This document shows, piece after piece, positions 40,792-62,272 of a stretch of DNA of 64,000 bases. The notes under the pieces were generated by a model. It saw nothing but the letters and a program-made list of their open reading frames with translations, made no database searches and was not told the DNA's origin. Source of the stretch: Giardia intestinalis. Lineage: Eukaryota. How positions within the stretch are numbered: position 1 is the stretch's first letter; each line of letters begins with the position of its first letter. Both the position numbers and the translations under genes were made by a program. Where the stretch lies: assembly GCA_000002435.2 (NCBI GenBank), contig CM018793.1; one strand, 5' to 3'.

Positions 40792-43452
40792 TTACAAGTT
40801 GTTTGAGTGGACATGTCCTTGTATAACCTCAATAATTCGTTCGGAAAGATTGACATCTTTGTAGACAGAGCCATCAGTTGCATAGTAAATGGCCGAGCGA
40901 CCACGCTGATCTAAAATATGCGCTTCCAAGGGTGAAAGTTCCTGAACAATACGCAAATACCCTAGCTGCGCTGCCATCATCAAAGCTGTGTGCCCTTTGG
41001 ACGTCTGTGCCCCTGCTTCATAAGGTAGCAATACTCGAACAATATCTAGTTGGTCTAGTTCGGCAGCCACCATGAGTGCGGTGCGTCCATTCTGGTCGCG
41101 AATGTTGGAGAGCCGGGGAGCGAGTAAATATACAGCGGCTAGATTGTTCATGGGTACAAATCCATGAAGTGTGGCTCCACGGTTGCATTGGTCATGGAGT
41201 ACATTGGATACTCGCACCAACTTTGATCGCAAATACTCAGACAAGTGATAATTTCTGGCCTGAATGGTCACTTCGAGAACCTCGAGCCAGATTCCATCGG
41301 CGTCTTCATGTAGAATGTCATGCCGCAGACACGCTTTAGAAAATAACTCGCGAAGCAAGGTCTCTTCACATGGAATAATAGAATTCAGTTTTCGCTGTGT
41401 CACAAAGCTAACAATATACGGGTTGTCAGCCGACTCCTTGCTTTCCTCGATATCCCTAAGAACTTTATCGCGTTCACAAAGAGCTCGCTGATATAAAATG
41501 CATGCCACTCTCTCCATATTGCCAACCCCCTCTTTCCGATGGTCACTGATAACATCGCAATCGGCTAGAGGAATTTGTGCAAGGCATTGATTTAGCTCAG
41601 CAATGGCCTTATCCTTTTCTAGTAGTTCTTCTGTTAGCCGAGCTATTAGTGTCTGGGCCTCAGCAAGTGAACCTTCAAGTTCTGCTCCTGGTTGTGATTG
41701 TGATTGTGGTTGTGGTTGTGGTTGCAATGCTTGGATCTCTTCAGTGCGAGCATTTGATGGCTCAGCTTGACGCTCGAGTTGATGAAAGTTGGCCACACTG
41801 AACTCAGAAGGGTATAGAACGGAAGCGCCTGGTTGTTGAAGGGCTTCTTGCAAGAGAATGCTCAGGCGTGTGGGGTCCACCACTCGTAAATGCACACCAG
41901 GACCAACACACTCCACCTGCACGCCGTGGTCAGCTAACTGTTCTATCAGTTTGGTCAGGCTACAGGCATCATCGTCTGCTGCAGCCTTTTTGCCTTCCTC
42001 TTCTTCTAAATAGCTGTATATGGTCATTGTATCGATCATTCTTGTTTCTACATCATTGTGAGCTGCTAAAGGGATTAAGTCTGAGGTGCAACATTCAATG
42101 GAAGGTTCTTGAACATCCTGAGGATGTGTAGGGTCAGTCTGCTTAGTATCGCTCTCTGCAGCTGTTTGTCGTAGTAAAGTAATACTTTGTTTGAGCTGCT
42201 GCAACTCCGTGTTCAGGGCGTCCCGCTCATTCTGAACGACTGAAAGCCTATCGCGTATCGCTTCTGCTTCCGCTATGGCATCAAGACATGATCTTCTTAA
42301 TGTTTGTATTTCTGTACTAGCAATCTCCGTCAGTACGGAGACCTTAGCAAAGTTTTGCGAGATTATGGAAGACTCTAGGCCCAATGTCAGCAAATTAGAC
42401 TTTAGTATTGAATACTCTGAAAGCATCTGCTTGCAAATTGATTCAGCGTCGGCAGAAGCAGCAAGATTATCCTTAATCTGCGCCTCCTCAGACATATTTG
42501 GAGTCTCCACAGCGTTTGAAGTTAGTGTTAAGGATATAGGATGTACCATCTGGCCGGATGCTTGAGTAGCTGCGGTCAATTCTGTTGTGAGCCGTGCTAT
42601 TTCTTCTTCCTTTTCACACAGTTGTTTTTCCTGGGTCTTCAGCTGTTCAGTAAGGCTGCGGAGCTTTGTGTCCATAGTTTCATAGCTCTGTTTCTCGTTA
42701 CTCAGTATACTAGAAATAATGTCCTGATATTTTCTAGATTGAGATTGCTCTTTCAAGAGCTCTGCTTGAAGTGCTTTAACGGCCTCCTGTAGCATCGATT
42801 TGGTAGCCCGCGCCATCCACTCCTCCGTTAGCGTATGCGTACCCATACCAGAAGTTGCCGTAGCAATGGATTCACCGGTCTTTTTGTCCAAAGCAGAAGC
42901 AGATCCTGTTTGTACTTGTTCGGATTGATCTGCTAAGGACTCCGGCTGAATGGCTCTTGCAGACTGCTTCCGGTGTGCAAGCATCTCTACTATACGATTG
43001 TACTGAGCTGAGGTGGGTGAATGCACCGACTGAAGTACCTTCTCAACGTGTTCAGAACCAAGCTCCTCATCCCGCAGAAGAAGTTCCACTATGGAATATG
43101 CACTGGCTTCAATGGCTCTTTCCATCATGTCGACTTTCGATACTATCTGGGCAGATAGCAAATGTGGACACAGCAGGGCAAAGATATCAGCCTCATCGTT
43201 CCGCAGACATGCTTTCATGCCTTGAGTAAGTGAAGTCAGTATGGCAGTTCGCTTCTTCTCGTCACAGGCGGTCCGAAGAGTGTTGGCATAAAGATTGCAG
43301 ATTGCCGCTATGGCTTCTTTATTCGCATATAGCACTGCAATAGTTAAACTAGAATTGGTACCCTCATCCACTGCCAGAAAGTACTCCTCAAGGTGAGCCA
43401 TCACGTAGGTATTGTCTGCCCGCTTCAGCGCCGAGAACCATTGGTCACTCAT
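40792..43452 (-). CDS. Coiled-coil protein with C-terminal ankyrin repeats, 886 aa.
   Basis: ATG at 43450-43452. The C-terminal motifs are GRTALMVAAELDQLDIVRVLL and GHTALMMAAQLGYLRIVQEL. The central region is heptad-rich, with a Q/P-rich stretch, PQPQPQSQSQP. Confidence 0.75.
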   Translation of the reverse strand: MSDQWFSALKRADNTYVMAHLEEYFLAVDEGTNSSLTIAVLYANKEAIAAICNLYANTLRTACDEKKRTAILTSLTQGMKACLRNDEADIFALLCPHLLSAQIVSKVDMMERAIEASAYSIVELLLRDEELGSEHVEKVLQSVHSPTSAQYNRIVEMLAHRKQSARAIQPESLADQSEQVQTGSASALDKKTGESIATATSGMGTHTLTEEWMARATKSMLQEAVKALQAELLKEQSQSRKYQDIISSILSNEKQSYETMDTKLRSLTEQLKTQEKQLCEKEEEIARLTTELTAATQASGQMVHPISLTLTSNAVETPNMSEEAQIKDNLAASADAESICKQMLSEYSILKSNLLTLGLESSIISQNFAKVSVLTEIASTEIQTLRRSCLDAIAEAEAIRDRLSVVQNERDALNTELQQLKQSITLLRQTAAESDTKQTDPTHPQDVQEPSIECCTSDLIPLAAHNDVETRMIDTMTIYSYLEEEEGKKAAADDDACSLTKLIEQLADHGVQVECVGPGVHLRVVDPTRLSILLQEALQQPGASVLYPSEFSVANFHQLERQAEPSNARTEEIQALQPQPQPQSQSQPGAELEGSLAEAQTLIARLTEELLEKDKAIAELNQCLAQIPLADCDVISDHRKEGVGNMERVACILYQRALCERDKVLRDIEESKESADNPYIVSFVTQRKLNSIIPCEETLLRELFSKACLRHDILHEDADGIWLEVLEVTIQARNYHLSEYLRSKLVRVSNVLHDQCNRGATLHGFVPMNNLAAVYLLAPRLSNIRDQNGRTALMVAAELDQLDIVRVLLPYEAGAQTSKGHTALMMAAQLGYLRIVQELSPLEAHILDQRGRSAIYYATDGSVYKDVNLSERIIEVIQGHVHSNNL

Positions 43453-43534: not shown

Positions 43535-46500
43535 ATGGAAGAACTGCTGGCGACCATCATACTTCATGGCTCTGCTGGGGAGTTTGGACGGATATCTGCT
43601 TTGTTGGAAGAGACTGCTCAAGATGGTAGCTTCAGTGCAGATGTTCGCAGCCTCCTGCGTGCAGCCCTGGACCTCCGCTTTGACGAGATTAAGCTGGGCA
43701 TGAGCGCTCTCCGCCAACACACCTCTGAAAAGCTGGCTACCATTGCCCTGTTTATTGAGTTTGTTTATTTGAGCTCTTGTCCTCTAAAGGATAACGACAG
43801 AATAGAAGTCTTACAAAAATCCTTAGAGCTGGACTTCATCTCCATCACACTCCCTCTTCTGCTTACTATGCTTGCTGCGTCTATTATGTTCAACCCCTCT
43901 GCATTATTGCCATTTTCTAATATGATAGAAAACAAAACTGACGGGATCCTTGCCTGCTGTGCACTAGCAATCCTTTTATCGGAGGATGTACCTGACAAGT
44001 TTCACGATAAACTGAATGATTATATGAGTCCTTGCCTTAAATCGTTGTCTTCTCCTGTCATCGCTCTAGCAAACACTATGTTTTATCTTAAGTCGGATAT
44101 TTCTGCTCTTAGAGAATACCTGCCGATGGTCACAGCTCGCTATACACGCATCGGGATAGTGCTCAAGGACCTTCAGTCCCTTGTCCTCTTCGACCCATCT
44201 GCTTATGACTCTGCTGTTGAAGTCTATCGATCCACTTTACCTCCAGGCATGCAGCTCATAGATCATATCAAGCAGTCGCACTTCCCATATTCTAAAGCCA
44301 ATCAGCTTGGAGCACTGCTATCTATCGCCTGCTTTAACACAGAGTCGGATCTGAATTCAGTGCTATTTACAGCAGGAAGGCATGTTTTGCTAAAAGACAT
44401 AGGGAACGTGCATTCTCCACAGCAGCTCAGTGCTGTATGCAGCTTCCTTGTTGGGATGTTGCGTTCATGTCCACTTGTCTCTGTCTGTGACACGCTGAGA
44501 GATCTTCTTGCAGAAGTACTGAGTGATCCGAAGTTGCAGCGCACCTATAAGACCCCGCTTCAGATTCTGAAGGCATACTTATCATCAGCGAAGGCTCTGC
44601 TGCATCACGTTAATGGAAGTGATGCCGATGCAAAGACTGTCTCAGAAGAGGCATTGGCAGAGATAAAGCAGGTTACAGAGCGATTGGACTGTTCCCTTGC
44701 AGAGATCTCTATATTGGGCGTGGACAAGAACAGTCTTTTGCTAACCATAGAAGACCTAAATATCCTCGTGTTATCTCTTTCGGGGAACCATGACAAAGCC
44801 GTCAGCAAAGCGCACATGTTGGCCGATCTCGACATCGACACTAGCCTTGCAGAGCTAGATGCTCCTGCATCTCCCAGCAAGCTTCTGGCAAACGAGAGCT
44901 CTTCAAGAAGTCAATCTTCACAAGAGATTGGGCGAAATTATGTTAGTAGCCATGCTGCGATGAATGTGATTCTATCTTCTATGTCCTCCGCACACCCAGC
45001 TCGCAAGTCTCTCTTTTCAATTATGCACGGCATCCTTCCATCTCTTATTGCCAAGGCGAAGAACCCCCTCGCGAATATGATTGGTGTCGGACCACTGCAT
45101 GCCAATGTGTGCTACTCTACTCTCTTTCCTGATACACTTGCCCTTACAGTACTAAGCAAATACATTATTCATACATTGAAAACAGGCCAGGACGGGCCAC
45201 TACTAGATAATGAAGCCAAGATCCTAACAACAAGCTACAACATCATCCTTTCTCTCTTGATAAGCTCTCCAACTCTGCGGCTGGCCAATCTCCACTTGCT
45301 GAGCTTCTTGCAGGAGCATCACTCTGTCATAAAGCATCTGTATGCCCTCTCTTCTTTGGCATCAGAGCACGGTTTTGTGGGCCTGACAACGGACGAGCTG
45401 TTCCTTGCAGCGACATCGAGTAATGTTATAGGTAACACGAAAGAGGTCCAGCTCTTTCTTTCACAGGCTGTCTTACTAGATCCATCTATCGAGCAGACTC
45501 CCAAGTTTGCCAGCGTTGTTTCGAAAATCTATTCTGCTCGTGGAGACTGGAGCCAAGCCATCAAGTCCCTCTCTACAATATTAACCAGCAAGATCATCAC
45601 CTTAAAGGATGACTCTCTTGCCAATACAGAACTATTACCATTACGAGTTCACATTGCGCTTTTAAAACTCCGTCTTTTTGATGAGAGTGGGTATCATGAC
45701 TTGAAGGCGTACCTGTCTGCAGTCGATTCCGAGCTTACATCCCAGGGCAGGCGTCTCAACCCACTATCTATTGAGCCGTACAACTCTAACTTGTTCTATG
45801 TCCACATGCAGTTGTCATATCTACTTTCTAAAATGACTGTCTTCTGTCTTATTAACGCTGGCGTGGCGCAAGTCTTTAACCTTACAGATGCATCTGAAAA
45901 CCTGTTCACCGCACTGCAGACTGAATATGCTCTTTCTTTTCTTGACTCTGCGTCGGTGGTTGGAGATCTTCTTGATGCACTTACGGGAACTGATAAGAAC
46001 GCCCTACAACAAGCATCTACTTCCACCAATAGTTTCCCTTACCTTGGAGCAGCATATGGACCAGATCCTTTCCCTTTTACCGACATATTTGTTAATCCAA
46101 GTGCCACAAACATGGCATATTCGATGTCCAAATCCCTAGTGACGTCGGAAACCATGTCCTTGCACACAGCCTTAGCATTTGTTAAGCCGTACCTAAAGAC
46201 CAACAGAGAAATAGAAGACTTTGTGTGTCTCATCTCTCTTCATTTAAAAAACGATAAGGCGGCATACATACAGCACTTTCTTTTAGATAAGGATAAATCA
46301 CCGGGATCAGAGTCAGAGTTATCATATGACAATGCCTCTCCGTCGAAGCTCTTCTCACTGGCGTCTGCATACCAATTTGTTGGGAAGACCAAGGAGTCAT
46401 CCAGGTGCTTAGAGATTCTATTTACCAATCACAAGAAATATGCTAAGTCACTTTCTTTACGACCAGACTCTGCATTACTTTTCCAAGCTGTTATATCAAC

Positions 46501-49003
46501 TCTCTATGTCCGATCGCTTTGCAAAACACATTACTTTCTCAAGGCCGAGGCCATGCTAGTAGAACTCGTCACTACACTCCTGGAAACGTGGAATAGAGAT
46601 CTAACGGGGTACTCTCTATCGTACACTTTAGTTTTCTCAGAGCTGATCAGGCTTCTTTATCGCATGGGCAAAGAGGCAGATATCGCGCACCTGACAGATG
46701 CCACTGTTTTGAAGCTCACCTCTCAGTACCAGCTACCACAGACCGCAGACGTCTCTACAAATCACCTCCCTACTGATGTTGTTTTCCTGGCTGTCTATTC
46801 ACTTCGTTGCCGTATCGCTTTAAAGGATCCTGCAACTACTGTCGACGACAAAATCACGAAGCTTCAACTAGCAATTAACTGGTTCACCTCCTGTGTCGTG
46901 GTGAAGACAGGTAAGACACTTACAACCTTAGTGAGGCCGAAGGTTCTGATCCGTGACGGAGTGTTCTCGTCTAAAGAGTCAGCGATACACAATCCAGCTA
47001 TGTATCAGAACACGCAAGTGTCGAGCCCGCTGCTCGCATGCAAAGCACGAGTCCTCGCAGCCGAGATGTACCTAGAGCTCGCTTATGTATACTTGGAGTC
47101 CACCGGGATTCTTACCAACCAGGTTATTCAGCCAGACATTTCCCTTGATCCCGTGAAGAAGGGAATGGCTAAGAGTGCACTAGACTTTATAAAGCGTTCT
47201 ATCGATCTTTGCGAAAGCTCAAAGGCCTACCTGCTAGGTGCCGTATTATTCTCTGTAGTGGCAAATGACTATGTAACAGCAAACGAATATGTGAACCACG
47301 CTCTAGAGCTTCCCGTAGTCGATACTCTTGCAGAGGACTTTCATTCTCAACTCAAGCTAAAACTGAAAACAGAGGGCAATAATGAAACTGACATGGATGA
47401 TTTTAATGCAGATTTTCAAGGCTATACTGAGTCTGGTGCTGATGTTCAGGACGCTTTCAAAAGTCCGTTCGAGCAACTAGTACACAAGCTGAAAAGAGAT
47501 ATGACCTGCGATCGTGCATCCACCTTGGATACGTTCCTGATGCAGTCGTGCACCAGACAAGATCCGTGGAACCTTCATAATCTTCTTTTTGGGAAGGACA
47601 ATGACGTAGAAATGGCAGGGATGGTTCAATCAGATACGGAGACATCAGACGAACGCGGAGATGGCAGTGGATGTTACAAGGATGAGGACAACAATGATAG
47701 CAACGATTACGAATACGAAGAGGGCATGCCACTAGACTCCAAGGGAGTAAGAGTCTCTTATAATGCCGCATCTGCAGCAGAGGCAACCCTACTCGGCAGC
47801 ATGGCAAACAGTCAGTCATCACAGAATGCCCAGAGCGGCTCCAGTTTACTTGATGGATATTGGTTCCTAGGACTTGGCTTTATATGCATTAAAACGGGTC
47901 GCGTCAAGGACGGCGTCCCCTACTTAATAGCTTCTACAAAGCTGCACACCTTACAGGAATCATACAAGGCAAGAGCATACTTTGTATTGGGCACGACATA
48001 CCTCAACTCCACCCGCACACCATTGTTCGGATATCAGAGCGCCCTCACCACCAAGTCCACCTCTGCTGTGGCCATGCAGAAGATGGCCATGAAGCTATCC
48101 AAGTCCGGAGGAAACCCTGATGAAGAGAATGTAGACGAGACTGGGGACGGAGTTGTTCCGACGCTGGCGGCCATCGAGGCCCAGGAAGAGGATGTCAATA
48201 ATGCAGTCAAAAGCCTAAAGGAGCTGGAGAAACTGTCCTTCCGCAATGTGGCAGAAGCAGCGTCTCTCCACCTCGCGCTGCTATGTTATATAAAAGTAAC
48301 GGAATATAAACTCATAAAGGACAAGATCAATAGAGTTATGTTGGATGAAGGAAAGGGCGCTAAGGTCAAAGTGGTGCCTTTGGAATCTAAGAAGGACAAA
48401 ATCAAGGATGATCTAGAAGCGGCAAAAGATGACTTATTGTCAGCAATAGAAGAAATGTCCGATATGACCCCCAATATCATCGTCTTACTGACCTGCCTTG
48501 GAATCGTTTTTACCCACTTGAAGAATCATCCCAGAGCCCGCAACCAGTTCAAGCGGGCTGCAGGCATCATCCCCAGCGTCAACGAGATTATAGCCACTAA
48601 TCAGGTGACAAGATGGTTGGACTTAGACGCTGCTGTCTCGGCTAATTTAGCTCTAGCAGACCTATACATCACAACAGGGAAGTTATCAAATGCTATTAAG
48701 AGTCTCGAGGCCATCTCTCAGCAGGACCACTTGAATGCTATCTCCTACGAGCTTTACGGCCTCGTGATGGAGAAGGAAGCCAGCTACAATGATGCATGTA
48801 AGTACTACGAATCAGCTTGGCTTCTAAGCAGAGGCGCATCGACAGTGGCGTTCCGTTTGGCGTACAACTATATCAAGAGCAACAGATATGAAGATGCTGT
48901 TGTCATGTGCCAGCTAGCACTGCGAGAATGGTCTGACTATGCTAGGCTAAGGAAGGAGGTCCTATACCTGGCAGAGCGTCGCCTCCGCACAAGCTCTATA
49001 TAA
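43535..49003 (+). CDS. Large (1822 aa) alpha-helical hypothetical protein with C-terminal TPR-like repeats and an internal acidic D/E/N-rich insert.
   Basis: ATG at 43535. TPR-like pairs lie near the C-terminus: YELYGLVMEKEASYNDACKYYESAW, AFRLAYNYIKSNRYEDAVVMCQLAL and GAVLFSVVANDYVTANEYVNHALEL. The acidic run is DETSDERGDGSGCYKDEDNNDSNDYEYEEG. Confidence 0.7.
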   Translation: MEELLATIILHGSAGEFGRISALLEETAQDGSFSADVRSLLRAALDLRFDEIKLGMSALRQHTSEKLATIALFIEFVYLSSCPLKDNDRIEVLQKSLELDFISITLPLLLTMLAASIMFNPSALLPFSNMIENKTDGILACCALAILLSEDVPDKFHDKLNDYMSPCLKSLSSPVIALANTMFYLKSDISALREYLPMVTARYTRIGIVLKDLQSLVLFDPSAYDSAVEVYRSTLPPGMQLIDHIKQSHFPYSKANQLGALLSIACFNTESDLNSVLFTAGRHVLLKDIGNVHSPQQLSAVCSFLVGMLRSCPLVSVCDTLRDLLAEVLSDPKLQRTYKTPLQILKAYLSSAKALLHHVNGSDADAKTVSEEALAEIKQVTERLDCSLAEISILGVDKNSLLLTIEDLNILVLSLSGNHDKAVSKAHMLADLDIDTSLAELDAPASPSKLLANESSSRSQSSQEIGRNYVSSHAAMNVILSSMSSAHPARKSLFSIMHGILPSLIAKAKNPLANMIGVGPLHANVCYSTLFPDTLALTVLSKYIIHTLKTGQDGPLLDNEAKILTTSYNIILSLLISSPTLRLANLHLLSFLQEHHSVIKHLYALSSLASEHGFVGLTTDELFLAATSSNVIGNTKEVQLFLSQAVLLDPSIEQTPKFASVVSKIYSARGDWSQAIKSLSTILTSKIITLKDDSLANTELLPLRVHIALLKLRLFDESGYHDLKAYLSAVDSELTSQGRRLNPLSIEPYNSNLFYVHMQLSYLLSKMTVFCLINAGVAQVFNLTDASENLFTALQTEYALSFLDSASVVGDLLDALTGTDKNALQQASTSTNSFPYLGAAYGPDPFPFTDIFVNPSATNMAYSMSKSLVTSETMSLHTALAFVKPYLKTNREIEDFVCLISLHLKNDKAAYIQHFLLDKDKSPGSESELSYDNASPSKLFSLASAYQFVGKTKESSRCLEILFTNHKKYAKSLSLRPDSALLFQAVISTLYVRSLCKTHYFLKAEAMLVELVTTLLETWNRDLTGYSLSYTLVFSELIRLLYRMGKEADIAHLTDATVLKLTSQYQLPQTADVSTNHLPTDVVFLAVYSLRCRIALKDPATTVDDKITKLQLAINWFTSCVVVKTGKTLTTLVRPKVLIRDGVFSSKESAIHNPAMYQNTQVSSPLLACKARVLAAEMYLELAYVYLESTGILTNQVIQPDISLDPVKKGMAKSALDFIKRSIDLCESSKAYLLGAVLFSVVANDYVTANEYVNHALELPVVDTLAEDFHSQLKLKLKTEGNNETDMDDFNADFQGYTESGADVQDAFKSPFEQLVHKLKRDMTCDRASTLDTFLMQSCTRQDPWNLHNLLFGKDNDVEMAGMVQSDTETSDERGDGSGCYKDEDNNDSNDYEYEEGMPLDSKGVRVSYNAASAAEATLLGSMANSQSSQNAQSGSSLLDGYWFLGLGFICIKTGRVKDGVPYLIASTKLHTLQESYKARAYFVLGTTYLNSTRTPLFGYQSALTTKSTSAVAMQKMAMKLSKSGGNPDEENVDETGDGVVPTLAAIEAQEEDVNNAVKSLKELEKLSFRNVAEAASLHLALLCYIKVTEYKLIKDKINRVMLDEGKGAKVKVVPLESKKDKIKDDLEAAKDDLLSAIEEMSDMTPNIIVLLTCLGIVFTHLKNHPRARNQFKRAAGIIPSVNEIIATNQVTRWLDLDAAVSANLALADLYITTGKLSNAIKSLEAISQQDHLNAISYELYGLVMEKEASYNDACKYYESAWLLSRGASTVAFRLAYNYIKSNRYEDAVVMCQLALREWSDYARLRKEVLYLAERRLRTSSI

Positions 49004-50576: not shown

Positions 50577-52595
50577 TCAATTTCTGTTCAGGCCAGTAAC
50601 GAACTTAAGCACTGTAGAACAATTAGCAATGCGATGTGCTTCCGTGCCGAAAAGCTGCGTATCCCGCAACCGTTGTGCAGTAGGAGAAGTTGTAGAGCCC
50701 ACAGGGTCGTGTGTAATAATGTCTGATTCGGAGCCATTTGAAAGAGTTATATTGTGGTGGAGAAGAGGCTCAACAGACAACAATATTTCGTCTAAATTGG
50801 ATGCGGAAGCATCTGCCTGGGCCCCCTGCCTGAGCACTACAAAGATATTGTAGTAGAGCCCTGCTTGTAGCTGTACAATGGGTTCGCTGTCCCTAACCAT
50901 TAGTTTAGCAAATACATCCGTCAAAACGGCCACCGTATCGTGTACCGAGTCAGTGGACGTGAATTCTTCATGCTCGTTTAGGCTATCTTTTAATAGACTG
51001 AAGTACCGTTGAAGTAGCAGGTGAAGAAGCATAAGCCGAAGTGCCGGGCTATACTTGCTAAATTTGCTTGATTTTGCCAAACTCATAGTAAATAGCTCTA
51101 GTGTGTGCTGCCTGTTAGCTTGATAGTACTGAAATATGCTCAATGATGCTTCTATCCCCCTCTCTGTCCTGACTAAGTAGAGAAGTGGCTCAAAAAAGGG
51201 TAACACATCAGCTACACTAGTGGGGTATGTCACCAAGAGCGTGCTTAATTGGACAACCATCTCCTCTATGACTGCCTGGACAGACGAGGAAATCGAGAGT
51301 TCATCTAAATCTGCACTCCCGTCTCTTGTGATGCGCTGTGCTGTCAAGTCGTTGCGGAAAGAGCTGAATAGTTCGCTATCAACTGAATTGAACAGCATGC
51401 TAGGCCGCTTGTCCATAGACTCGCCCAGCAGGGCTGAGAGGATGGATTTGAAAACATTCAGTATGCGCTCTGCAAACAGGCACAGTTTGACGGCAATCCT
51501 ACCGAAGGTTTCGATGCACCTCCTGATAATGTCGGGAGACATCTCATTCAAGACCCAGTTCCCCAATCCCACAATGATTTCCTTCGCATTTGTATTATTA
51601 GAAAGATAGTACAGGATGTCCAATTTGCACAGCTTTATCGCCTTTCCGTCCGTGTAGCACGGGATAAAGTACAGAACATGGCCATTAAACAAGCTAGGGT
51701 ACTGCTGGATCAGGGCGGGCAGGCTACTCAGGGTTACATAACGTAGTTCGAAAGAATTTGAAAGAGTAAGGGTGATTAAAACTAAAAGTAACTTGCTGAC
51801 CATCCCTTCTCTCAATTTTTTATCTGGAAGCACCTCGATTGTTCTTAGTATTATTCGCAGTGAGGATATTGCTACAGAGCCATCTGTGTGCTGCACCAAC
51901 AGGAATAAACACTCAATGACAGCTTTGGCGTCCTCCACCTCAGTGATGCACCAGCCATCAAGGACCTCTAGAAGTGCAAGCACGTTCCACAGTGACGCAT
52001 CGGAGGCCTTGCGAAGGAGATCTATGCACTGATCGAGGCTCAGCCTCTCCTTGTCTACAGCAAAGAGACACCGGGACGCCACAATTGCAACGTCTACTGA
52101 TTGGTCCTTGATCAAGGCATCCAAAATGTCTAGCAGTCCTGCCTCACAAGCCTTCTGAGCATCAAGCTTGAAGATGTTGGACACGCAAACCGCCACAGCA
52201 GACCTAACATACGCATTCTCATCAGATGCAGCCTTCTTAATACATACAGATACGTTCGCTATAATCTCTGGGGTGCAAATTTCGCCCAAGGTCCTTATGG
52301 CTTGCTCACGGATCATGGGGGTGTTGCCCTGAGTTGCCTTAGTTTCAAGGGCATTGACAGCCAAAAGCAAGGCTTGTGGATCTTTGCGTCCCACATATGT
52401 AAGAAATAAATGTGCTAGAGATACTACTTCTGGATTGGTGGCCTTCGCAACTTTCGCAACCGAGGGAACCAGTTGCCGTAGATCCACTCCCCGGGCTACA
52501 GCCCCCAATGCCTCCGTCAAGGCGTTGATTTTGCAGTCATCGGCCTTGTTTCCCAGGGCTTCTGTCCACTGTTGAATGTTTGTTGTTGAGCCCAT
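50577..52595 (-). CDS. Adaptin N-terminal domain protein: an AP-complex large subunit that is beta-adaptin-like, at 672 aa.
   Basis: The track start is TTG; the first ATG is at 52593-52595. It is all HEAT/ARM-like helices. The blocks MIREQAIRTLGEI and ENAYVRSAVAVCVSNIFKLDAQ match the beta-adaptin motifs LIRALAVRTMGCI and EDPYVRKTAAVCVAKL. Confidence 0.65.
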   Translation of the reverse strand: MGSTTNIQQWTEALGNKADDCKINALTEALGAVARGVDLRQLVPSVAKVAKATNPEVVSLAHLFLTYVGRKDPQALLLAVNALETKATQGNTPMIREQAIRTLGEICTPEIIANVSVCIKKAASDENAYVRSAVAVCVSNIFKLDAQKACEAGLLDILDALIKDQSVDVAIVASRCLFAVDKERLSLDQCIDLLRKASDASLWNVLALLEVLDGWCITEVEDAKAVIECLFLLVQHTDGSVAISSLRIILRTIEVLPDKKLREGMVSKLLLVLITLTLSNSFELRYVTLSSLPALIQQYPSLFNGHVLYFIPCYTDGKAIKLCKLDILYYLSNNTNAKEIIVGLGNWVLNEMSPDIIRRCIETFGRIAVKLCLFAERILNVFKSILSALLGESMDKRPSMLFNSVDSELFSSFRNDLTAQRITRDGSADLDELSISSSVQAVIEEMVVQLSTLLVTYPTSVADVLPFFEPLLYLVRTERGIEASLSIFQYYQANRQHTLELFTMSLAKSSKFSKYSPALRLMLLHLLLQRYFSLLKDSLNEHEEFTSTDSVHDTVAVLTDVFAKLMVRDSEPIVQLQAGLYYNIFVVLRQGAQADASASNLDEILLSVEPLLHHNITLSNGSESDIITHDPVGSTTSPTAQRLRDTQLFGTEAHRIANCSTVLKFVTGLNRN

Positions 52596-52663
52596 TTCCT
52601 GCAAAATATATTAAAATATAAAATAGGTGCGTTTTTAAACTCTGGCGCAAAGAATTCGCAGAC
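52596..52663. promoter_or_regulatory. A 68-bp AT-rich bidirectional promoter region.
   Basis: It lies between the adaptin ATG (minus) and the ATG of the 588-aa gene (plus). The sequence is ttgcaaaatatattaaaatataaaataggtgcgtttttaaac. Confidence 0.4.
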
Positions 52664-54453: not shown

Positions 54454-57237
54454 CTATAATTTATTACGATTGAGGGTGGCCTGGACGGCTTCTCGCTGTG
54501 CATCAGTAGCGGTGGGTGATATGAGCATTATGTAGTCACGTGCGGTGCGGTTTTCTTTATCTATTAGCTTATATTCCATGGGATAAAGGATCTCTATAGC
54601 TGGTATGTTCATGAATTTCACAGCGAGCATCAAGGCTGTGGTGCCATTCTCGTCTTGAAGTGATGCCTGCATCGAGGCGAGGCACCACACTGAAATGATA
54701 TCGTTATCTATGACGGCCTGCATAAGCTCTGTGCGGCGGTTGCCAATTCTACTGCGATGGGGAACTTGAACGCCTTCGGAGTCCCGTAAGAGCTCTGCAA
54801 TCCTGTACCGTCCCATCATTATTGCGTGGTATAAAGCTGTGTGACCATTAACATCCTTCAGCCCTGCCTCAAAGGGTATCAAATCTTGCACAAATGTGTG
54901 TCTATTGTATTCAACAGCATACATGAGTGCAGTCTTCCCAGCGGATGTTCGTTGTTTTGCATATGATATCGACTCGTTAAACTTGCTAAAATTACACTCC
55001 ACGACAGCTATCATGAGTGGTGTGAGCTCGTCAATGTTTGGTGGGATCACAGGAGCGTTTGCATATTGAAGTGAGCGGGGCGGCGAGGTAGGAAGTGTTC
55101 TGCGCTCCAGGTCCTGACTTAAAATAGCACCAGACCACTTATCTGTGCTCATGCGGGGAGTTGATACTGAAGTGCCGTTAGCGTTCCTGGTAGCTATCTG
55201 TGATATTGTTGCATTTCCTACTCTCTGGTCAGCAACCAACTGCTGCAGGGCATCAATAGAGCTAGTTGATCTAGTGGCTACCGGCTGCAGTATATGAACA
55301 GATCTCCTGCTATCATATGGCGTAATGGATCTACTAGTACGAGAAGACATATCCCGAACTGGAGTATTGTTCTTACTGAGGGAGCCCAATCCAGTAATGC
55401 TGGTTCGCAGATGGTCAATCCCAGACGACTGTCCCGCCAGGCTTTTAATGGACGCCCCTGCTATGGCCTGTATCGATTGCGTGTTGGGGAGATTGTATAA
55501 AGTCTGCGATAAGCGTGCAGTGCTCCTGCCTCCAGTTTCAATCATAGAGCCAGTCAGAATGGTGCTATTAGCCATACCAGATAGTCGCGATTCTAGGACA
55601 GGATCGTCCATGGAGTTGTCCAATGGATGCATGCCGGAATACGCTAGCGTGGGCGAAAGACACCGCGGGACCTGTGGAGATGTAATGCTACGGTCCGTCA
55701 GCCGAATACTATCCTGGTTGAAACCGTCTTCCTCTGCTTTATAACTTAAATTGCTAAGATCAATACTCTGACGATTGCTCACAGTAGTGATGTGCAAGAT
55801 GGTGTCCTTTAACTGAGTGATCTTACGTTGCAGAGCCTCGTTTTCGGTCTTTAAAACCCTGGCCGCATTCTGTCTGGCGGCACTAAGTTTATAGAGCGAG
55901 TCATAATTTGCTCGATAGCGCTTAATGGCCTCTTCAGCCGTGTTTAGCCGCGCCTTTAGTGCAGAAATTTCTAGCTCATAGTTCTGCACCCACTGAACAT
56001 CCACCTGGACCGATCTGGAGACGGTAGGGACATTTGTTGCCATACCAGTCACGACCGCAGGTTGAGAGGGTATGGATTCGCGCAGCTGCTGCTTGGTAGC
56101 GCTGCCAGACCCAACAGAGCTACGGTGAACATCCAGTGAACAAATGTCTGCAGTGGGTGTATGCCTTCCAGAACCCTGGAGCAATGCATACTCTGGAGAC
56201 ACGTGACCGCTCTGTGTTGCTGCTGCAGCTTCCTGTATCCTCGACGATCGAAAATCTTTGCTGTTAATGTCGAGCTTCTTCTTTAGCTCGTCGTTTTGGG
56301 TGTGCAGCGCACAGCATTCTCGTTTATATCTCTCTACTTCTTCACTAAAGTAGGAGTCCATGAGCTGGTGGGACGTCACCTCCTCTAGCTTTCGCTTGAG
56401 ACGATCTATCTCTGCATTTTTCTCCATGATAACTTCATCGAATTTCTGAGTTACACTAGGACGATAATACAAAGACTTCAAGATCTTTATTTCTGCGTCC
56501 TTTTTAGCTACTATCTCAGAAAGTTTAAAAGGTTCCACTGAGTTAGTAGAAGGATCGTAACCATTACTATTAGTAGACGTCGTTTGGGCCTGAACTCCTT
56601 GATCTGTAACAGTCATTTTACATGCAAACAAGTTAAGATACTGCTCACATCGCTTGCAGGGGAAGTCCTTGGTAGCGGGAATCTTGCTCTTGAGCACATT
56701 CTCAAGAGTCGTAAGCCCGCGTCTGTTGGCCAAGAGGATTGCATGGCTAATATCGCTCTGCCGGATAATCTGCGAAGATAGTATGAGGTTCACAGCAGCG
56801 CTGCTTTTAGAAATTACCGCATAGTCTAGCGCATTCATGTTATATATGTCTGTTCGCAAAACGAAGTGCTGCCTAAGAGCGTTGAGAGCATCCACGCTTC
56901 CATGCTGTGCAGCAATCATATATGCGTCCTGGCCTCTGTAATTTGAGATGGATTTTTCTGCGGAGACAAGTATCTTGCAAAATATGGGGCGATTATTCGC
57001 TGCGGCAACCATAAGAGCAGTTTCATCCTGTGCATTCTTCAAGCCTGATTCCGTTCGCTCTAGCTCTCGAACTTGGGCCTCATCGTTATTACGAACCGCA
57101 TTGATCAGAGCACTATCCTTCAATAAACTCGGGCTCATTCGACTACTTAAAATGCTGCTCCCTGCCACCAGGGGAGATTTCGGTGTTTGGCTGGCGGCTG
57201 CAGGGTCTTTTGGAGCCAAACTCTGGGCAGGTAGCAT
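54454..57237 (-). CDS. Ankyrin-repeat, coiled-coil, ankyrin-repeat protein of 927 aa from the first ATG.
   Basis: The track start at 57294 is TTG. An ATG at 57235-57237 is preceded by an AT-rich tract. The N-terminal ankyrin motifs are DETALMVAAANN and GQDAYMIAAQHGSVDAL. The C-terminal motifs are GKTALMYAVEYN, GHTALYHAIMMGRY and GTTALMLAVKF. Heptad-rich segments lie between them. Confidence 0.7.
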   Translation of the reverse strand: MLPAQSLAPKDPAAASQTPKSPLVAGSSILSSRMSPSLLKDSALINAVRNNDEAQVRELERTESGLKNAQDETALMVAAANNRPIFCKILVSAEKSISNYRGQDAYMIAAQHGSVDALNALRQHFVLRTDIYNMNALDYAVISKSSAAVNLILSSQIIRQSDISHAILLANRRGLTTLENVLKSKIPATKDFPCKRCEQYLNLFACKMTVTDQGVQAQTTSTNSNGYDPSTNSVEPFKLSEIVAKKDAEIKILKSLYYRPSVTQKFDEVIMEKNAEIDRLKRKLEEVTSHQLMDSYFSEEVERYKRECCALHTQNDELKKKLDINSKDFRSSRIQEAAAATQSGHVSPEYALLQGSGRHTPTADICSLDVHRSSVGSGSATKQQLRESIPSQPAVVTGMATNVPTVSRSVQVDVQWVQNYELEISALKARLNTAEEAIKRYRANYDSLYKLSAARQNAARVLKTENEALQRKITQLKDTILHITTVSNRQSIDLSNLSYKAEEDGFNQDSIRLTDRSITSPQVPRCLSPTLAYSGMHPLDNSMDDPVLESRLSGMANSTILTGSMIETGGRSTARLSQTLYNLPNTQSIQAIAGASIKSLAGQSSGIDHLRTSITGLGSLSKNNTPVRDMSSRTSRSITPYDSRRSVHILQPVATRSTSSIDALQQLVADQRVGNATISQIATRNANGTSVSTPRMSTDKWSGAILSQDLERRTLPTSPPRSLQYANAPVIPPNIDELTPLMIAVVECNFSKFNESISYAKQRTSAGKTALMYAVEYNRHTFVQDLIPFEAGLKDVNGHTALYHAIMMGRYRIAELLRDSEGVQVPHRSRIGNRRTELMQAVIDNDIISVWCLASMQASLQDENGTTALMLAVKFMNIPAIEILYPMEYKLIDKENRTARDYIMLISPTATDAQREAVQATLNRNKL

Positions 57238-57362
57238 TGACAGAACAAAATTTACCTGTTTTGCCTTTACCTTTTCTTTTATATTCAGTACCAATGGGTA
57301 AGAGCGTCAGCCACGTCAGCCATTGATAGCTAAAGTAAGAGAATTTATTACAACGTAAGCAC

Positions 57363-59822
57363 TTAGTCTGTGATGTCTGGCCCATGACTCCTGGCCAATG
57401 GTGTTGATGTGCTTCTAGATTTGCTTAGCACAGTTCCATAAAACTCATAGGGGTTCGATTTCTTCACCATATCTGCGTTGTACTTGTTCAAAGGCGAGGA
57501 GTTGCGTATCCAGCAGTTGGAAATATCTGCAACGATGCTCTTTAGTGGCGAGCGTCCATCGGCAATAACGGGGGGTTGGTAGGATGACTTTAGCAAATAG
57601 CTAGTACTCTTATTTAGCTCAGCATTCCGCTTCCCGAAGAATGCCCTTGAGTCTTCTGAAAGCGCTGTATTGGCGTACTTGGCCTTCGATTCTGTAGGCT
57701 GCGAGGGTGCCAGCTCTACGTGAGTTGAGCTGTGAACTGATAGTGGCAGTTGCTTGCCAGAAATCACCGGCCTTTCTGCGCTCAATTTGATCATTTGGCT
57801 GATGATCGCCTCTGTGTTGGATCGCCTACTCCCATAGGTTAGTACATGCCTGGTTCCCCCGGGAGCACTAGTGGTACTGTTGTCACTGCCGTGGCTGACA
57901 AAGCTGATAGAGCTCAACGTTGTGGATGAAACATCACTTGGTGCACGGTGTTCAGCATCATCAGGTCTCTGTGGCAACTCGGCCAGTTTGTCCGAGGTGA
58001 AGGATGATATGCTAGATGCCTCACGAATAGCATTCTTGATGAAACTAGCAGTGTACTTGCTAGGGGAGTCTACGCCGTCCAAGTCTTTAGCGGAAAGAGA
58101 TCTCCCGAGCGCTTCCGCGTCATCTAGCATGTCCATATCCTCGTCGCCAGCTTTAGAGACAAGGGCACATGGTTCTACATTTACGACTACTATAGGTTCC
58201 GCAGTGGAAGCCATTGTGGTACCCTGGCACTCTTTGGGAAGGCTAGGAAATGAAGCCGCGTCTGGATCGGGTCTATCAAAGCCTTTGCCTCCCTTAGACA
58301 GAATAGTCTTAGAGTCTAGGTGCGCGGTCAAGTGGAGCTCTTGTATGGCATTTTCCAAGTACACTTTCTCTAGAATTGCTGTCTTTGCTATATGCTTCTC
58401 TTTGAGCAGCTCAACGAGGAAAACAGTCAAGTTAGAGAATAAGGTTTCTGTGAGCGACTGCGCACAGTGTATATTCTCAATGGTTGAGACATTGCTAACC
58501 ATGCGAATGAGCTCATCCGCAGTTTTTAGTGTGCTTTCCTTAACCTTGGCAGCAATATCCAGGTTCTCACTACCTCCATTCTCCAAGGTTAGTACTGTAT
58601 TTCGTAACTCTGTAATTAAATTTTCTACATAATCACCAACCATAGCTTTCTCTGCTTCTGCTGTGCCAGCCTCCTTATCAAGCCTTGTCCGTGCGCTTTC
58701 AGCAACCATGTCATTAAACTTATCTAATGCTTCGTCCCTTTCTGCTGTAATCTTCTGCAATTTTGCTGCCTGTTCATCAATCTCAGCCGTTGTAAGACGT
58801 AGCTTTTCCTTTACGGTCTCTAGATCTTCAGCGCACCTATCCAGTGTTATTTTCTTCCGTAAACATTCTGCACATTGAAGGCTAGTGCGCTTGAGTCCTT
58901 CATCCGCTCTATTCACAGTCGGCTCTGCGGCTGCACTGTCAGTCTGAATAGAGGCCTCACACAAGTCTAGAGCAGCTAATACTGAAAGGTCTATTGCCTC
59001 TGCTTTGCTCCTCTCTCTTTCCTCTGCATCGTGAGTCAATCTCTGAATTTCGGTCATGAAGGCACTCAGCGTCGACACACCAGACTCGACATCCTCTGCC
59101 AGTCTTTTGTTTCTTTGCTTTTCACTGGAGAGTGACGTCTTCAGACCTTTAATACGCTTAGAATAGAATGAAGTGAGCGCCTTTCCAAGGGCTGGTGTTC
59201 CTGCTGCCTTCTCAAGTAGTTCGCATACTAGTTCATCTACATTAGTGCTATCATCTGACATAGCACCTTTGACTTGGGCTATAAGTGCTTTCATGGTTGA
59301 TGAACTGAATTTGGCAAGTGTTGTGTCCTCGCCGTGAGGTGAAGCAGATATGGAAGACAGTGACGAAGGGTCATAGGTTGCTAATAACTCTATGACTTCC
59401 TTTGAAGTGTATTCAGAGGCTAATATCCGCGCCGCCTCCAAGTCATCCTGCAATAGCATTCTGTGCTGTAAGAAGAACTTAAGTGGCTCAACATTTCCAT
59501 GTATTATCGCCGTCTCGATGGGAGACATGCCATCCTCGTCTCTCTTCAGCCACGTTCTAATGAGGAATAACTCCAAAAAGTTCGTATTCTTTGCTTCCAC
59601 TGCATAATGCAGGGCAGTCCTTCCTCTAGGGTCGCAGATATGCAGACTGTGTGGCAACAGAAGAGAAGCAAGCTTTGAGGAAGGCTGTTGAGCGACCAGC
59701 ATTAGGGCCGTCTGCCCTGTAGAGTTCTTCTCGTCAGCATGCTTGCCAACCAACTCCTCTATCTGTTTAGAGTCTTCTAGAGTGAGTGCCTGCGACCAAT
59801 CGCTCTGAAATCCAGAAAACAT
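57363..59822 (-). CDS. Ankyrin-repeat (N-terminal) plus coiled-coil protein, 819 aa.
   Basis: ATG at 59820-59822. The ankyrin motifs are GQTALMLVAQQ, GRTALHYAVEAKN and SPIETAIIHGNVEPL. Long coiled-coil segments follow, then a Ser-rich tail. Confidence 0.75.
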   Translation of the reverse strand: MFSGFQSDWSQALTLEDSKQIEELVGKHADEKNSTGQTALMLVAQQPSSKLASLLLPHSLHICDPRGRTALHYAVEAKNTNFLELFLIRTWLKRDEDGMSPIETAIIHGNVEPLKFFLQHRMLLQDDLEAARILASEYTSKEVIELLATYDPSSLSSISASPHGEDTTLAKFSSSTMKALIAQVKGAMSDDSTNVDELVCELLEKAAGTPALGKALTSFYSKRIKGLKTSLSSEKQRNKRLAEDVESGVSTLSAFMTEIQRLTHDAEERERSKAEAIDLSVLAALDLCEASIQTDSAAAEPTVNRADEGLKRTSLQCAECLRKKITLDRCAEDLETVKEKLRLTTAEIDEQAAKLQKITAERDEALDKFNDMVAESARTRLDKEAGTAEAEKAMVGDYVENLITELRNTVLTLENGGSENLDIAAKVKESTLKTADELIRMVSNVSTIENIHCAQSLTETLFSNLTVFLVELLKEKHIAKTAILEKVYLENAIQELHLTAHLDSKTILSKGGKGFDRPDPDAASFPSLPKECQGTTMASTAEPIVVVNVEPCALVSKAGDEDMDMLDDAEALGRSLSAKDLDGVDSPSKYTASFIKNAIREASSISSFTSDKLAELPQRPDDAEHRAPSDVSSTTLSSISFVSHGSDNSTTSAPGGTRHVLTYGSRRSNTEAIISQMIKLSAERPVISGKQLPLSVHSSTHVELAPSQPTESKAKYANTALSEDSRAFFGKRNAELNKSTSYLLKSSYQPPVIADGRSPLKSIVADISNCWIRNSSPLNKYNADMVKKSNPYEFYGTVLSKSRSTSTPLARSHGPDITD

Positions 59823-59902: not shown

Positions 59903-62206
59903 TCAGAAGATGGCCTGACAGGTCGCGCAAGCCGCAGAGTGGGCCTGTATCTCGTCGCAAAGCTTCTCGACAAGTGCTATCTGCTTATTGGACAATATAG
60001 ATACAATATCGGACATTGACCAGTAGAAGTTCTGTGTGCCATCGGATTGCACATGCTGCTTGTAGTAGTATGCTTGATCTTCAACTGCTGAGAATATGTG
60101 CGCTAGGCTCACACAGCTGTCTCTACTTCTGAAGCGTTGAGACAGCTTTGTGCGCTTCTGGAGACAGCTACTGAAAGCCGCGTCAAGATCCATTCGGATA
60201 GAAAGCAGATACGCCGTGTCCAAGTTGGGCTGCTTCCAATACTTTTCTAGTGTCTTGTATGAAGCTGCCCCTACTGTGTACTCTCCGGTATCTCTTTTAG
60301 AGCTCAATACTTTAGAGGGTATTATGTGCTTATTAATAATAAGAGAGCACTGCTTGCAATAAATCTTTCCTGTGTAATGACAAAAGAGGAGGCTGGCTTG
60401 TTCTTCTTGGGATGTAGTAGCCAGTGAGCAATCGCAGCCAGCGCACTTATCAGCTTGGAGGCCGCTAATTATCCTTGAGAGATTCGATGGTCTAGAATAG
60501 TCAGTAAGTAAGTATGTGTAGGTGTTGATGTTAATGTTGGGAGCGTTCTCGACACGCAGAAGTGGGGTCACGGAGCTGCTGGTTCCTGCTGCTATCTTAT
60601 CGAATGTGTAATGCTCAACGTTGAATGAGAATGTCTTGTTTGAAAACGCTGGCGCAGATGGAACGACCCCTAGATCTTTGTCCTGCCTCCCCTTATGCTT
60701 GCCTTTTTCCGCCTTTTTGAAGCCATCGCCTTCAGTGACTAAGGCAGCCAAGCGCACCCAGTAATTGACAACACCATCTGTGATAAGCGCCTTTCCGGTA
60801 AAGCTAACCATTTCGCAATCACCCTTTTCAGACAACACGGCCCTCTCTACAGGTACATCTGAGAGGACATCCATCACAAGGCCTTCGGCCTCAATTGTCT
60901 TTGTATCGATCACGGTTTCGATCACAGCGACCCTCTTTGCTATCTTCTTTATCTCGTCCTTTATCGTGGGGCACGTATCGCCGAGCAGACTCCTATTGGC
61001 ATCTGTCAACAGATTAGTCCTCGCAAAAATGGTCTTCACCTCTTCTGCTTCTGGTTTTCGATCATTGACAGAAACTGGTAGGCTTGAGGCTAAGGAGTTG
61101 TCCCCTATTGGGACGAAATCTGAAGCTGGGGATGTAGAGGACGGTTTGGACTCTATGGTTCGTGCCTCCGGCTGCATAGTCTGAGACACAGTTGGCACTG
61201 GTGCTGTTCTAAGAGATGGAGGCTGCGCTACTCTGGTGGCAGCGGCGTCCTTATTCTGCACAGAAGCGATGTTGACAGGGACCCCTGCAATTACCTGAAT
61301 AGAGGAAGATTTGGTCAAGGATTTCAGAAGAGCCGCATCATCAGCCATGGTATCCAATGAAAGAGCTTGTGCCGGTAGGTATCCTGAAGGCTTCGGCGCC
61401 GGGGCAGGAGCAGGAAGCAGCTCTGGCTTCACGGAGTCTGCTGCTGGTTGTGGCTCAGATTTCTGATCCTTCGGATTCTCATCTGGTTGTGATCTCAAAA
61501 CAGAAGGGTCTACTGAGACAGCAAGTGCTGAAGATTGTGCAATGCTTGGGGTGGGCGGAGCCTGCTGAGAAGGTTCTGCGGTGTGGATTGTAGAAGAAGA
61601 CATACTAGAGGGTGCAGTACTCTGCCGAGATGAATCAAGACCGATTTGCTCCTTGTACAATCGCTTGCCATTTATAGCAGCCAGCTGATACTCTGCTAGT
61701 GTCCCGGGGACAACATCTGCAGGGGGGAACATAGCAAGTTGAAACCTCACTCCGGAATCGTGCATACGCATTAAATATTTAATCACCTTGCCTCTCCGCT
61801 TCGCATGGCCCACGACACTCGATTCTGAATACATCTCTGGCATTGTACTTTCACAGAATCCAGTAAATAGACCTATGAATTGATCCTCTGTCAATAGTAG
61901 TCGAGTCAGTGCAAGAATCTTGGCCTGTTCGTTGGCCTGCTGCAGCTCGGGACTGGAAGTAAGTATCGGGAGGATTCTGAATGGATCCTGGAATTTTTGC
62001 TCAATGTACTCACGTATTGATGCCCAAACATACTCTTCCTTGGAGCCCTTGATGAGTATGCACGCAAGCACCTCTGCTAGCCTCTGAGTAACAGGGTCTT
62101 TATCGGTCCAGGTGCTGGCATGCCCTTCTTCACCATAGCGGACATATTCGATGAGAAAATCTAGGGCATCAACGAGGTCTGCCTCCGAGAGATCATGTAC
62201 GGACAT
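59903..62206 (-). CDS. A 767-aa protein with a Cys-rich C-terminal domain resembling the Rubicon-homology (RH) domain of Rubicon, PLEKHM1 and DEF8. The N-terminus may be RUN-like.
   Basis: ATG at 62204-62206. The C-terminus has KCAGCDC, then LLFCHYTGKIYCKQC, then IPSKVL, then YWKQPNL, then HSAACATCQ. This is the same motif order as the RH domain: CAGC, FCxYxGKxxCxxC, IPxxxL, W.QP and HxxxCxxCQ. The middle region is Pro/Ser/Ala-rich and low in complexity. Confidence 0.65.
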   Translation of the reverse strand: MSVHDLSEADLVDALDFLIEYVRYGEEGHASTWTDKDPVTQRLAEVLACILIKGSKEEYVWASIREYIEQKFQDPFRILPILTSSPELQQANEQAKILALTRLLLTEDQFIGLFTGFCESTMPEMYSESSVVGHAKRRGKVIKYLMRMHDSGVRFQLAMFPPADVVPGTLAEYQLAAINGKRLYKEQIGLDSSRQSTAPSSMSSSTIHTAEPSQQAPPTPSIAQSSALAVSVDPSVLRSQPDENPKDQKSEPQPAADSVKPELLPAPAPAPKPSGYLPAQALSLDTMADDAALLKSLTKSSSIQVIAGVPVNIASVQNKDAAATRVAQPPSLRTAPVPTVSQTMQPEARTIESKPSSTSPASDFVPIGDNSLASSLPVSVNDRKPEAEEVKTIFARTNLLTDANRSLLGDTCPTIKDEIKKIAKRVAVIETVIDTKTIEAEGLVMDVLSDVPVERAVLSEKGDCEMVSFTGKALITDGVVNYWVRLAALVTEGDGFKKAEKGKHKGRQDKDLGVVPSAPAFSNKTFSFNVEHYTFDKIAAGTSSSVTPLLRVENAPNININTYTYLLTDYSRPSNLSRIISGLQADKCAGCDCSLATTSQEEQASLLFCHYTGKIYCKQCSLIINKHIIPSKVLSSKRDTGEYTVGAASYKTLEKYWKQPNLDTAYLLSIRMDLDAAFSSCLQKRTKLSQRFRSRDSCVSLAHIFSAVEDQAYYYKQHVQSDGTQNFYWSMSDIVSILSNKQIALVEKLCDEIQAHSAACATCQAIF

Positions 62207-62223
62207 GTCAATTTTTTTTGCAA

Positions 62224-62265
62224 CAGTGTAATGAACTCAGTGTAATGGACTCAGTGTAATGGACC
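62224..62265. repeat. Three tandem copies of a 14-bp motif, cagtgtaatg(a/g)ac(t/c).
   Basis: Read directly from the sequence: cagtgtaatgaact, cagtgtaatggact, cagtgtaatggacc. It lies 18-59 bp upstream of the ATG of 59903..62206, on the minus strand. It also lies immediately 3' of the stop of the gene 62273..62731. Confidence 0.6.
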
Positions 62266-62272
62266 TGTCCGG

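Follow-up and report, generated by a model that had tools for sequence, protein, structure and literature searches.

The 64,000-nucleotide stretch of Giardia intestinalis DNA analyzed here (NCBI GenBank assembly GCA_000002435.2, contig CM018793.1; the window, in what follows) encodes, at 59903..62206 on the minus strand, a 767-residue protein that ends in a Rubicon-homology (RH) domain. The domain is cut short. The truncation is real, and sequence comparison indicates that it is ancestral to the genus Giardia. We consider it somewhat probable that this truncated RH family protein docks through its remaining half-RH module, the conserved end of an adaptor, that the module carries about two zinc ions, and that it does not work in the manner in which Rubicon binds Rab7.

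RH family membership and the remaining zinc ligands

The open reading frame (ORF) is intact from ATG to TGA, with 767 codons followed by the stop at 59903-59905. Its product is 100% identical to the G. intestinalis (duodenalis) WB protein XP_001709344.1 / KAE8305073.1 / UniProt A8B5Z8, an identity that confirms the diplomonad origin surmised in the initial annotation. The database name of the WB protein is "putative zinc-RING and/or ribbon domain-containing protein", where "zinc-RING and/or ribbon" is presumably the former name of Pfam PF13901, the RH family. UniRef labels the orthologs from assemblage B, P15 and DH "Rubicon Homology domain-containing protein", and a precomputed PF13901 assignment already stands in the protein's database entry. 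That Giardia has an RH domain is therefore already part of the public annotation at NCBI and UniProt and not new, and the earlier proposal of a new entry falls away, since the protein and its orthologs already carry this Pfam family. A search of the literature on Giardia together with Rubicon, DUF4206, PLEKHM1 or zinc-RING returned nothing on the A8B5Z8 protein, and we came across no statement of the genus-wide truncation or of what it means for a reading as a Rab7 effector.

By sequence and predicted fold, the C-terminus is a genuine member of the RH family, as had been proposed. PF13901 (RH_dom) matches aa 608-765 with E=2e-13 and a score of 51.2 bits, where the gathering cut-off is 28.1, and the only PDB entry matched by sequence was the RH domain of human Rubicon (6wcw_A, E=3.4e-4). 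An AlphaFold2 model of aa 385-767, built from an 11-sequence alignment, gave block predicted local distance difference test (pLDDT) values of 62-88 in the RH part (aa 575-767). In a Foldseek comparison of the model with the PDB, 6wcw_A was again the sole significant match (E=1.8e-7, prob 1.00). This match is specific, because the RH fold is reported by Bhargava et al. (PMC7382272) to be unique in the PDB.

The five motifs quoted in the initial annotation are all present in the translation and in the order given there: CAGC (aa 588-591), FCHYTGKIYCKQC (aa 608-620), IPSKVL (aa 629-634), YWKQPNL (aa 656-662) and HSAACATCQ (aa 756-764). The Cys/His pattern that it had recognized as that of an RH domain runs in the right order, but it comprises only the first part of the array: the Pfam match starts at profile position 2 and stops at position 153 of 206. 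The truncated domain extends over aa 574-767 (59906..60487, minus strand), within which the Pfam match covers 59912-60385. Judged from the sequence and the model, the protein has the HMM score, the fold and the putative cluster 1 cysteines of an RH domain, but neither the full ligand set of zinc clusters 2-4 nor conserved Rab7-contact residues.

Rubicon positions were read from the 6WCW chain sequence in the phmmer alignment, with the residue number equal to the chain index + 695. The numbering was checked on the residues named in PMC7382272 and was correct for all of them (N821, M822, T825, R827, L883, A886, K887, F889, I890, Q895, E897, I900, C912, C915, C918, H920, R931, R934 and R938). In this alignment Giardia C588, C591, C617 and C620 correspond to Rubicon C721, C724, C747 and C750, and C609, which is invariant in Giardia, corresponds to C739. 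Unlike these, Rubicon H751 has been lost, its position being occupied by S621. The segment that holds the five cysteines (aa 588-620; 60347..60445, minus strand) is FYVE-like, and from the alignment and the residue table we take it to be zinc cluster 1. In Rubicon this cluster is described as a Cys-4 site within a FYVE-like region (708-784; PMC7382272), and by that description C588, C591, C617 and C620 are its putative ligands in Giardia.

The cysteine of the helical stalk, C698 (60113..60115, minus strand), aligns with Rubicon C826, is invariant in Giardia and G. muris, and adjoins the equivalents of T825 and R827, two residues that contact Rab7. This cysteine is a candidate for the fourth ligand of the terminal knuckle H756-x3-C760-x2-C763 (59918..59941, minus strand), whose residues align with Rubicon H877, C881 and C884. 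The elements retained in Giardia are therefore the FYVE-like segment with its four aligned cysteines, the helical stalk and the last helix, which is preceded by the H-x3-C-x2-C knuckle.

Directly after C763 come only QAIF and the stop codon, and the last residue, F767, falls on Rubicon G888. Because the protein ends at this point, the equivalents of 11 downstream Cys/His residues of Rubicon (C891, C894, H907, C909, C912, C915, C918, H920, C923, C929 and C932) are absent. The same end point leaves the domain without most ligands of zinc clusters 2-4, without helix alpha13, which would lie past F767, and without most of the surface with which Rubicon grips Switch II of Rab7. The four zinc sites that the initial annotation looked for are not supported: in the alignment, only the Cys4 set and three ligands of the C-terminal clusters (H756/C760/C763) remain. 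From the alignment, the half-RH module would bind about two zinc ions, one at the Cys4 site and one at H756/C760/C763, the latter possibly closed by C698.

Canonical FYVE domains bind phosphatidylinositol 3-phosphate through the motifs WxxD, R(R/K)HHCR and RVC. None of the three was visible by eye in aa 588-634, in which respect the Giardia protein is unlike FYVE domains, and Pfam gave no FYVE match in it. The likeness to FYVE domains such as those of Vps27p (1VFY) and EEA1 (1JOC) lies in the retained zinc cluster 1 region, which is FYVE-like in RH domains generally (PMC7382272).

The position of C763 also raises the question of a lipid anchor. In every G. intestinalis-type sequence a hydrophobic tail follows a Cys placed five residues from the C-terminal end. 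Prenylation motifs of the extended form C(x)3X are on record, and C763-QAIF could be a signal of this kind that tethers the protein to membranes. We regard this as very improbable, given that C763 is homologous to the conserved Rubicon C884, a presumed zinc ligand, and that the spacing is not conserved in G. muris, where the Cys stands six residues from the end (CGVALV).

Reality and age of the truncation

Taken alone, a Pfam match that ends at position 153 of 206 could suggest a shortened model, in which a sequencing frameshift, a missed intron or a model error hides a full four-zinc RH domain. We put the chance of this close to nil. All three frames hit stops in the 80-nt spacer after the TGA, no Cys-rich coding potential is found there, and an ankyrin-repeat gene begins just past the spacer, at 59822. 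The end point is common to all five G. intestinalis-type sequences, which end in CQAIF or CQTIF (three of them named: WB, P15 and assemblage B), and to further members of the assemblage-A cluster, where eight of the nine are 767 aa or fragments thereof and every full-length member is 767 aa. The G. muris homolog TNJ27645.1 (P0014) stops at the same place. Its Pfam RH span is 2-151 of 206, its C-terminal end is HTAACTACGVALV, and it terminates 5 residues past the last shared Cys. A gene-model artifact or missing exon was rejected on the three-frame stops downstream and on the identical ends, that of G. muris included.

This G. muris protein is the sole close relative found (profile E=3e-45). 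When 1.84 billion representatives were searched exhaustively with an HMMER profile, 7 matches reached E<=0.001. Just two of these had E<=1e-10, namely the query's own cluster and the G. muris homolog. Over aa 464-763 the G. intestinalis and G. muris proteins are 35% identical (BLASTP, E=2e-52), and C588, C591, C609, C617, C620, C698, H756, C760 and C763 are all kept in both species. That each of these residues survives at 35% identity argues that the remaining sites are still in use or under selection. Beyond the genus the truncation is not datable, because no other diplomonad or metamonad was recognizable among the 7 profile matches. Two further homology searches, one seeded with the RH alignment and the other with only the RH domain, gave 3 and 0 proteins, respectively; as the query itself was not among them, they carry no weight. 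Among RH proteins from metagenome and Logan data, outside this window, P0015/P0020 and P0019 have Pfam matches that stop near 142-150 of 206; they are eukaryotic, and their source is short contigs or gene models that may be incomplete.

The databases leave unrecorded that the domain breaks off precisely at the start of the zinc clusters that bind Rab7, that this holds across the genus, and that it occurs in an organism without a described Rab7.

Rab7 binding and the role of the half-RH module

The CGHL mutant of Rubicon, which we take to be C912G/C915G/C918G/H920L, concerns residues that fit a C-x2-C-x2-C-x-H spacing in the 6WCW sequence and whose equivalents are missing from the Giardia protein. 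The CGHL mutation abolishes Rab7 binding in both Rubicon and PLEKHM1 (PMC2993745). The Rubicon-Rab7 interface is formed by zinc clusters 2-4, the end of the stalk and helix alpha13 (PMC7382272). Nine of the 16 Rab7-contact residues named there have no counterpart in Giardia (F889, I890, Q895, E897, I900, R931, R934, R938 and R939). Among the other seven, the only identity in G. intestinalis is A765, equivalent to A886, and none is identical in G. muris.

Eight Rabs have been described in Giardia (Rab1a, Rab2, Rab11, Rab32, RabA, RabB, RabD and RabF; PMC2879372), and only Rab1, Rab2a/b and Rab11 are stated to cluster firmly with orthologs (PMC6953089). Rab7 is named in neither of these two sources on Giardia Rabs, and several Rab reviews contained no usable statement on a Giardia Rab7. 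The Rab7-binding module put forward in the initial annotation is not supported, given the missing contacts, the missing CGHL residues and this Rab literature. From its sequence, the Giardia RH protein is probably not a classical Rab7 effector.

It could still be a working Rab effector of the Rubicon, PLEKHM1 or DEF8 type that acts through the stalk end and helix alpha12 and marks a surviving late-endosomal or lysosomal Rab pathway, its partner being a Rab7-like, a Rab32-like or a lineage-specific Giardia Rab. Sequence and fold both place the protein firmly in the RH family, and it has the end of the stalk (aa 693-699) as well as the counterpart of alpha12 (aa 761-766), each of them modeled well. 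A765 matches Rubicon A886, S697 is a conservative match to T825, and the tail C-Q-A-I-F resembles Rubicon C884-Q-A-K-G-F889 if a one-residue gap is allowed. A Rab named Rab32 is among those described in Giardia (PMC2879372). We nevertheless judge such an effector distinctly unlikely. Most of zinc clusters 2-4 and alpha13 is absent, and these make up the bulk of the interface (PMC7382272); absent too are the CGHL positions that both Rubicon and PLEKHM1 need for Rab7 binding (PMC2993745). G. intestinalis differs at six of the seven surviving contact positions, G. muris conserves none of them, and no Rab7 ortholog is named in PMC2879372 or PMC6953089.

According to PMC2993745 and PMC7382272, the RH proteins PLEKHM1, DEF8 and Pacer (RUBCNL) conserve a set of nine Cys and one His as zinc ligands and bind Rab7 through it; the Giardia protein retains only part of this set. 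Its architecture, a C-terminal RH domain with long linkers and variable N-terminal modules, is like that of these three proteins, but it has no Pfam-detected RUN, PH or C1 domain. From Rubicon it differs in ending at G888, before C891-C932 with the CGHL residues, alpha13 and the nine contacts, in having Ser for H751, and in having neither the RUN domain nor the phosphatidylinositol 3-kinase-binding domain PF21054 in the Pfam scan. That scan of the 767-aa protein gave no RUN, PIKBD (PF21054), PH or C1 domain, with PH and C1 not appearing even at E<=10. The same Pfam library detected PF21054 (RUBC_PIKBD) in the metazoan-like RH matches P0016, P0030 and P0031. By architecture, the Giardia protein is not an ortholog of Rubicon, PLEKHM1 or DEF8.

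In the reading that we prefer, a cytosolic adaptor would use the half-RH module as its conserved docking end on the reduced endomembrane system of Giardia, and the disordered linker together with the variable N-terminal domain would present a second partner. The module could dock on a non-Rab7 small GTPase or on another membrane protein. A more specific proposal, which is conceivable although we hold it doubtful, is that the half-RH module and the Giardia-specific pre-RH region next to it constitute a self-sufficient targeting unit with a non-Rab7 partner. This partner might be a lineage-specific Giardia Rab or a non-GTPase protein at peripheral endocytic compartments. If true, the first three-quarters of the RH domain would have a Rab7-independent function that has outlived both Rab7 and the Rab7-binding zinc clusters.

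Several points weigh against the docking-end reading. The zinc stoichiometry comes from alignment only, and C698 as the fourth ligand is a guess. The idea of an adaptor is drawn from the architecture, the models of the pre-RH region and the N-terminal domain are of low confidence, and we found no experiment or localization data for the A8B5Z8 protein. The absence of Rab7 is taken from PMC2879372, PMC6953089 and general background, not from a genome scan. Lastly, the stalk end and helix alpha12, which are part of the Rubicon-Rab7 interface, are still present and may form a reduced GTPase-binding surface.

The half-RH fold could also be a relic that serves only as a structural or oligomerization scaffold, without a targeting role, while the N-terminal domain or the pre-RH region carries the activity. 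The RH "L" has lost its functional base, and the RH sequence is very divergent, with only the few matches given above among the 1.84 billion representatives. Conservation with G. muris is equally strong in the pre-RH region (aa 464-573) and in the RH part. Against a relic, the remaining putative zinc ligands and the exact end point are kept between species at 35% identity, which argues for selection on the half-RH module itself. The module is moreover the sole part common to both species, the N-termini having been swapped. On balance we rate a relic as unlikely.

The truncation warns against taking the PF13901 label in Giardia as a sign of a Rab7 or late-endosome pathway. The Giardia protein can also be regarded as a natural dissection of the RH domain: if the half-RH module still targets something, then its FYVE-like segment and stalk have an independent function. 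This is of modest, specialist value, for the evolutionary cell biology of reduced endomembrane systems, and for now amounts to a refinement of the annotation.

Modular layout, upstream repeat and neighboring genes

The remainder of the protein is modular. The N-terminal domain (aa 1-190; 61637..62206, minus strand) is predicted to be all-helical and is conserved only among G. intestinalis assemblages. The initial annotation had considered this end possibly RUN-like, but it is not detectably RUN, and no match to RUN (PF02759) was among the Pfam results. It is followed by a low-complexity linker (aa 191-384; 61055..61636, minus strand), delimited by alignment and composition; Pro, Ser, Ala, Thr and Gln account for 58% of its residues, and Cys is entirely lacking. 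The length of this linker varies by assemblage. It is shorter by ~80-90 aa in WB (assemblage A), while P15, assemblage B and two other Giardia sequences (840-883 aa) have a longer Pro/Ser/Ala-rich linker. The next segment (aa 385-463; 60818..61054, minus strand) is conserved among the G. intestinalis assemblages and not in G. muris, and is helical in a low-confidence prediction.

The pre-RH region (aa 464-573, CEMVSFTG...YSRP; 60488..60817, minus strand) is conserved with G. muris, as seen both by BLASTP and in the profile match P0014. Beta strands are predicted in it with a model pLDDT <50, and it may be a divergent PH-like fold. From these comparisons the conserved unit is aa 464-767, that is, the pre-RH region plus the half-RH module, to which exchangeable N-terminal modules are joined. 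TNJ27645.1, which is annotated as "Ankyrin repeat protein 2", shares with the G. intestinalis protein the pre-RH region and a truncated RH domain ending after H-x3-C-x2-C; it differs in its length (618 aa versus 767 aa) and in its N-terminus, which consists of ankyrin repeats in place of the helical domain. The possibility that the G. intestinalis N-terminus is a degenerate form of the G. muris ankyrin N-terminus was rejected (hhalign probability 0.3%).

Immediately downstream of the RH gene, and in the same orientation, are two ankyrin-repeat genes (54454-57294 and 57363-59822, both minus strand). A simple ankyrin fusion or fission does not fit this arrangement, because these genes are downstream and not upstream of the RH gene.

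On the 5' side, a 66-nt spacer (62207-62272) separates the stop of the upstream gene from the ATG of the RH gene. Most of it is occupied by three tandem copies of a 14-nt motif (62223..62264, annotated on the plus strand), which on the gene strand reads GTCCATTACACTGA. Two copies are exact and one has 2 mismatches. An A-rich tract (TTGCAAAAAAAATTGAC) lies between the repeats and the ATG. The motif occurs nowhere else in the window, where 0.23 matches would be expected by chance, and 2 of 100 shuffles reached 3. The repeat may be a promoter element.

Pfam matches identify several of the other genes in the window. These encode an NGP1/MMR_HSR1 nucleolar-type GTPase (36770-38983, minus strand), a Cys-rich protein with Ephrin_rec_like repeats (39156-40778, plus strand), a further ankyrin protein (40792-43452, minus strand), a protein with a TTC21-type C-terminal ARM domain and TPR repeats (43535-49003, plus strand) and an Adaptin_N protein, a large subunit of an adaptor complex (50577-52604, minus strand). 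A 3049-aa ORF (1997-11146, minus strand) had zero Pfam matches.

The window also contains a single 8035-aa ORF (11194-35301, minus strand) with repeats at ~12120-32000. Its interior consists of 13 tandem copies of a unit of 1509 bp or 1698 bp (503 or 566 aa), spaced in the order 1509 x4, 1698 x4, 1509, 1698 x2 and 1509. The array has a GC content of 0.60-0.66 and an AT skew of ~-0.35, the window being otherwise ~46% GC. Tandem Repeats Finder misses the array because its period is >500. One unit gave only sub-threshold Pfam matches of coiled-coil type (ATG16, HAUS1). Across the 300 nt that were sampled, identity among the copies is 100%, which suggests either very recent homogenization or an assembly effect.

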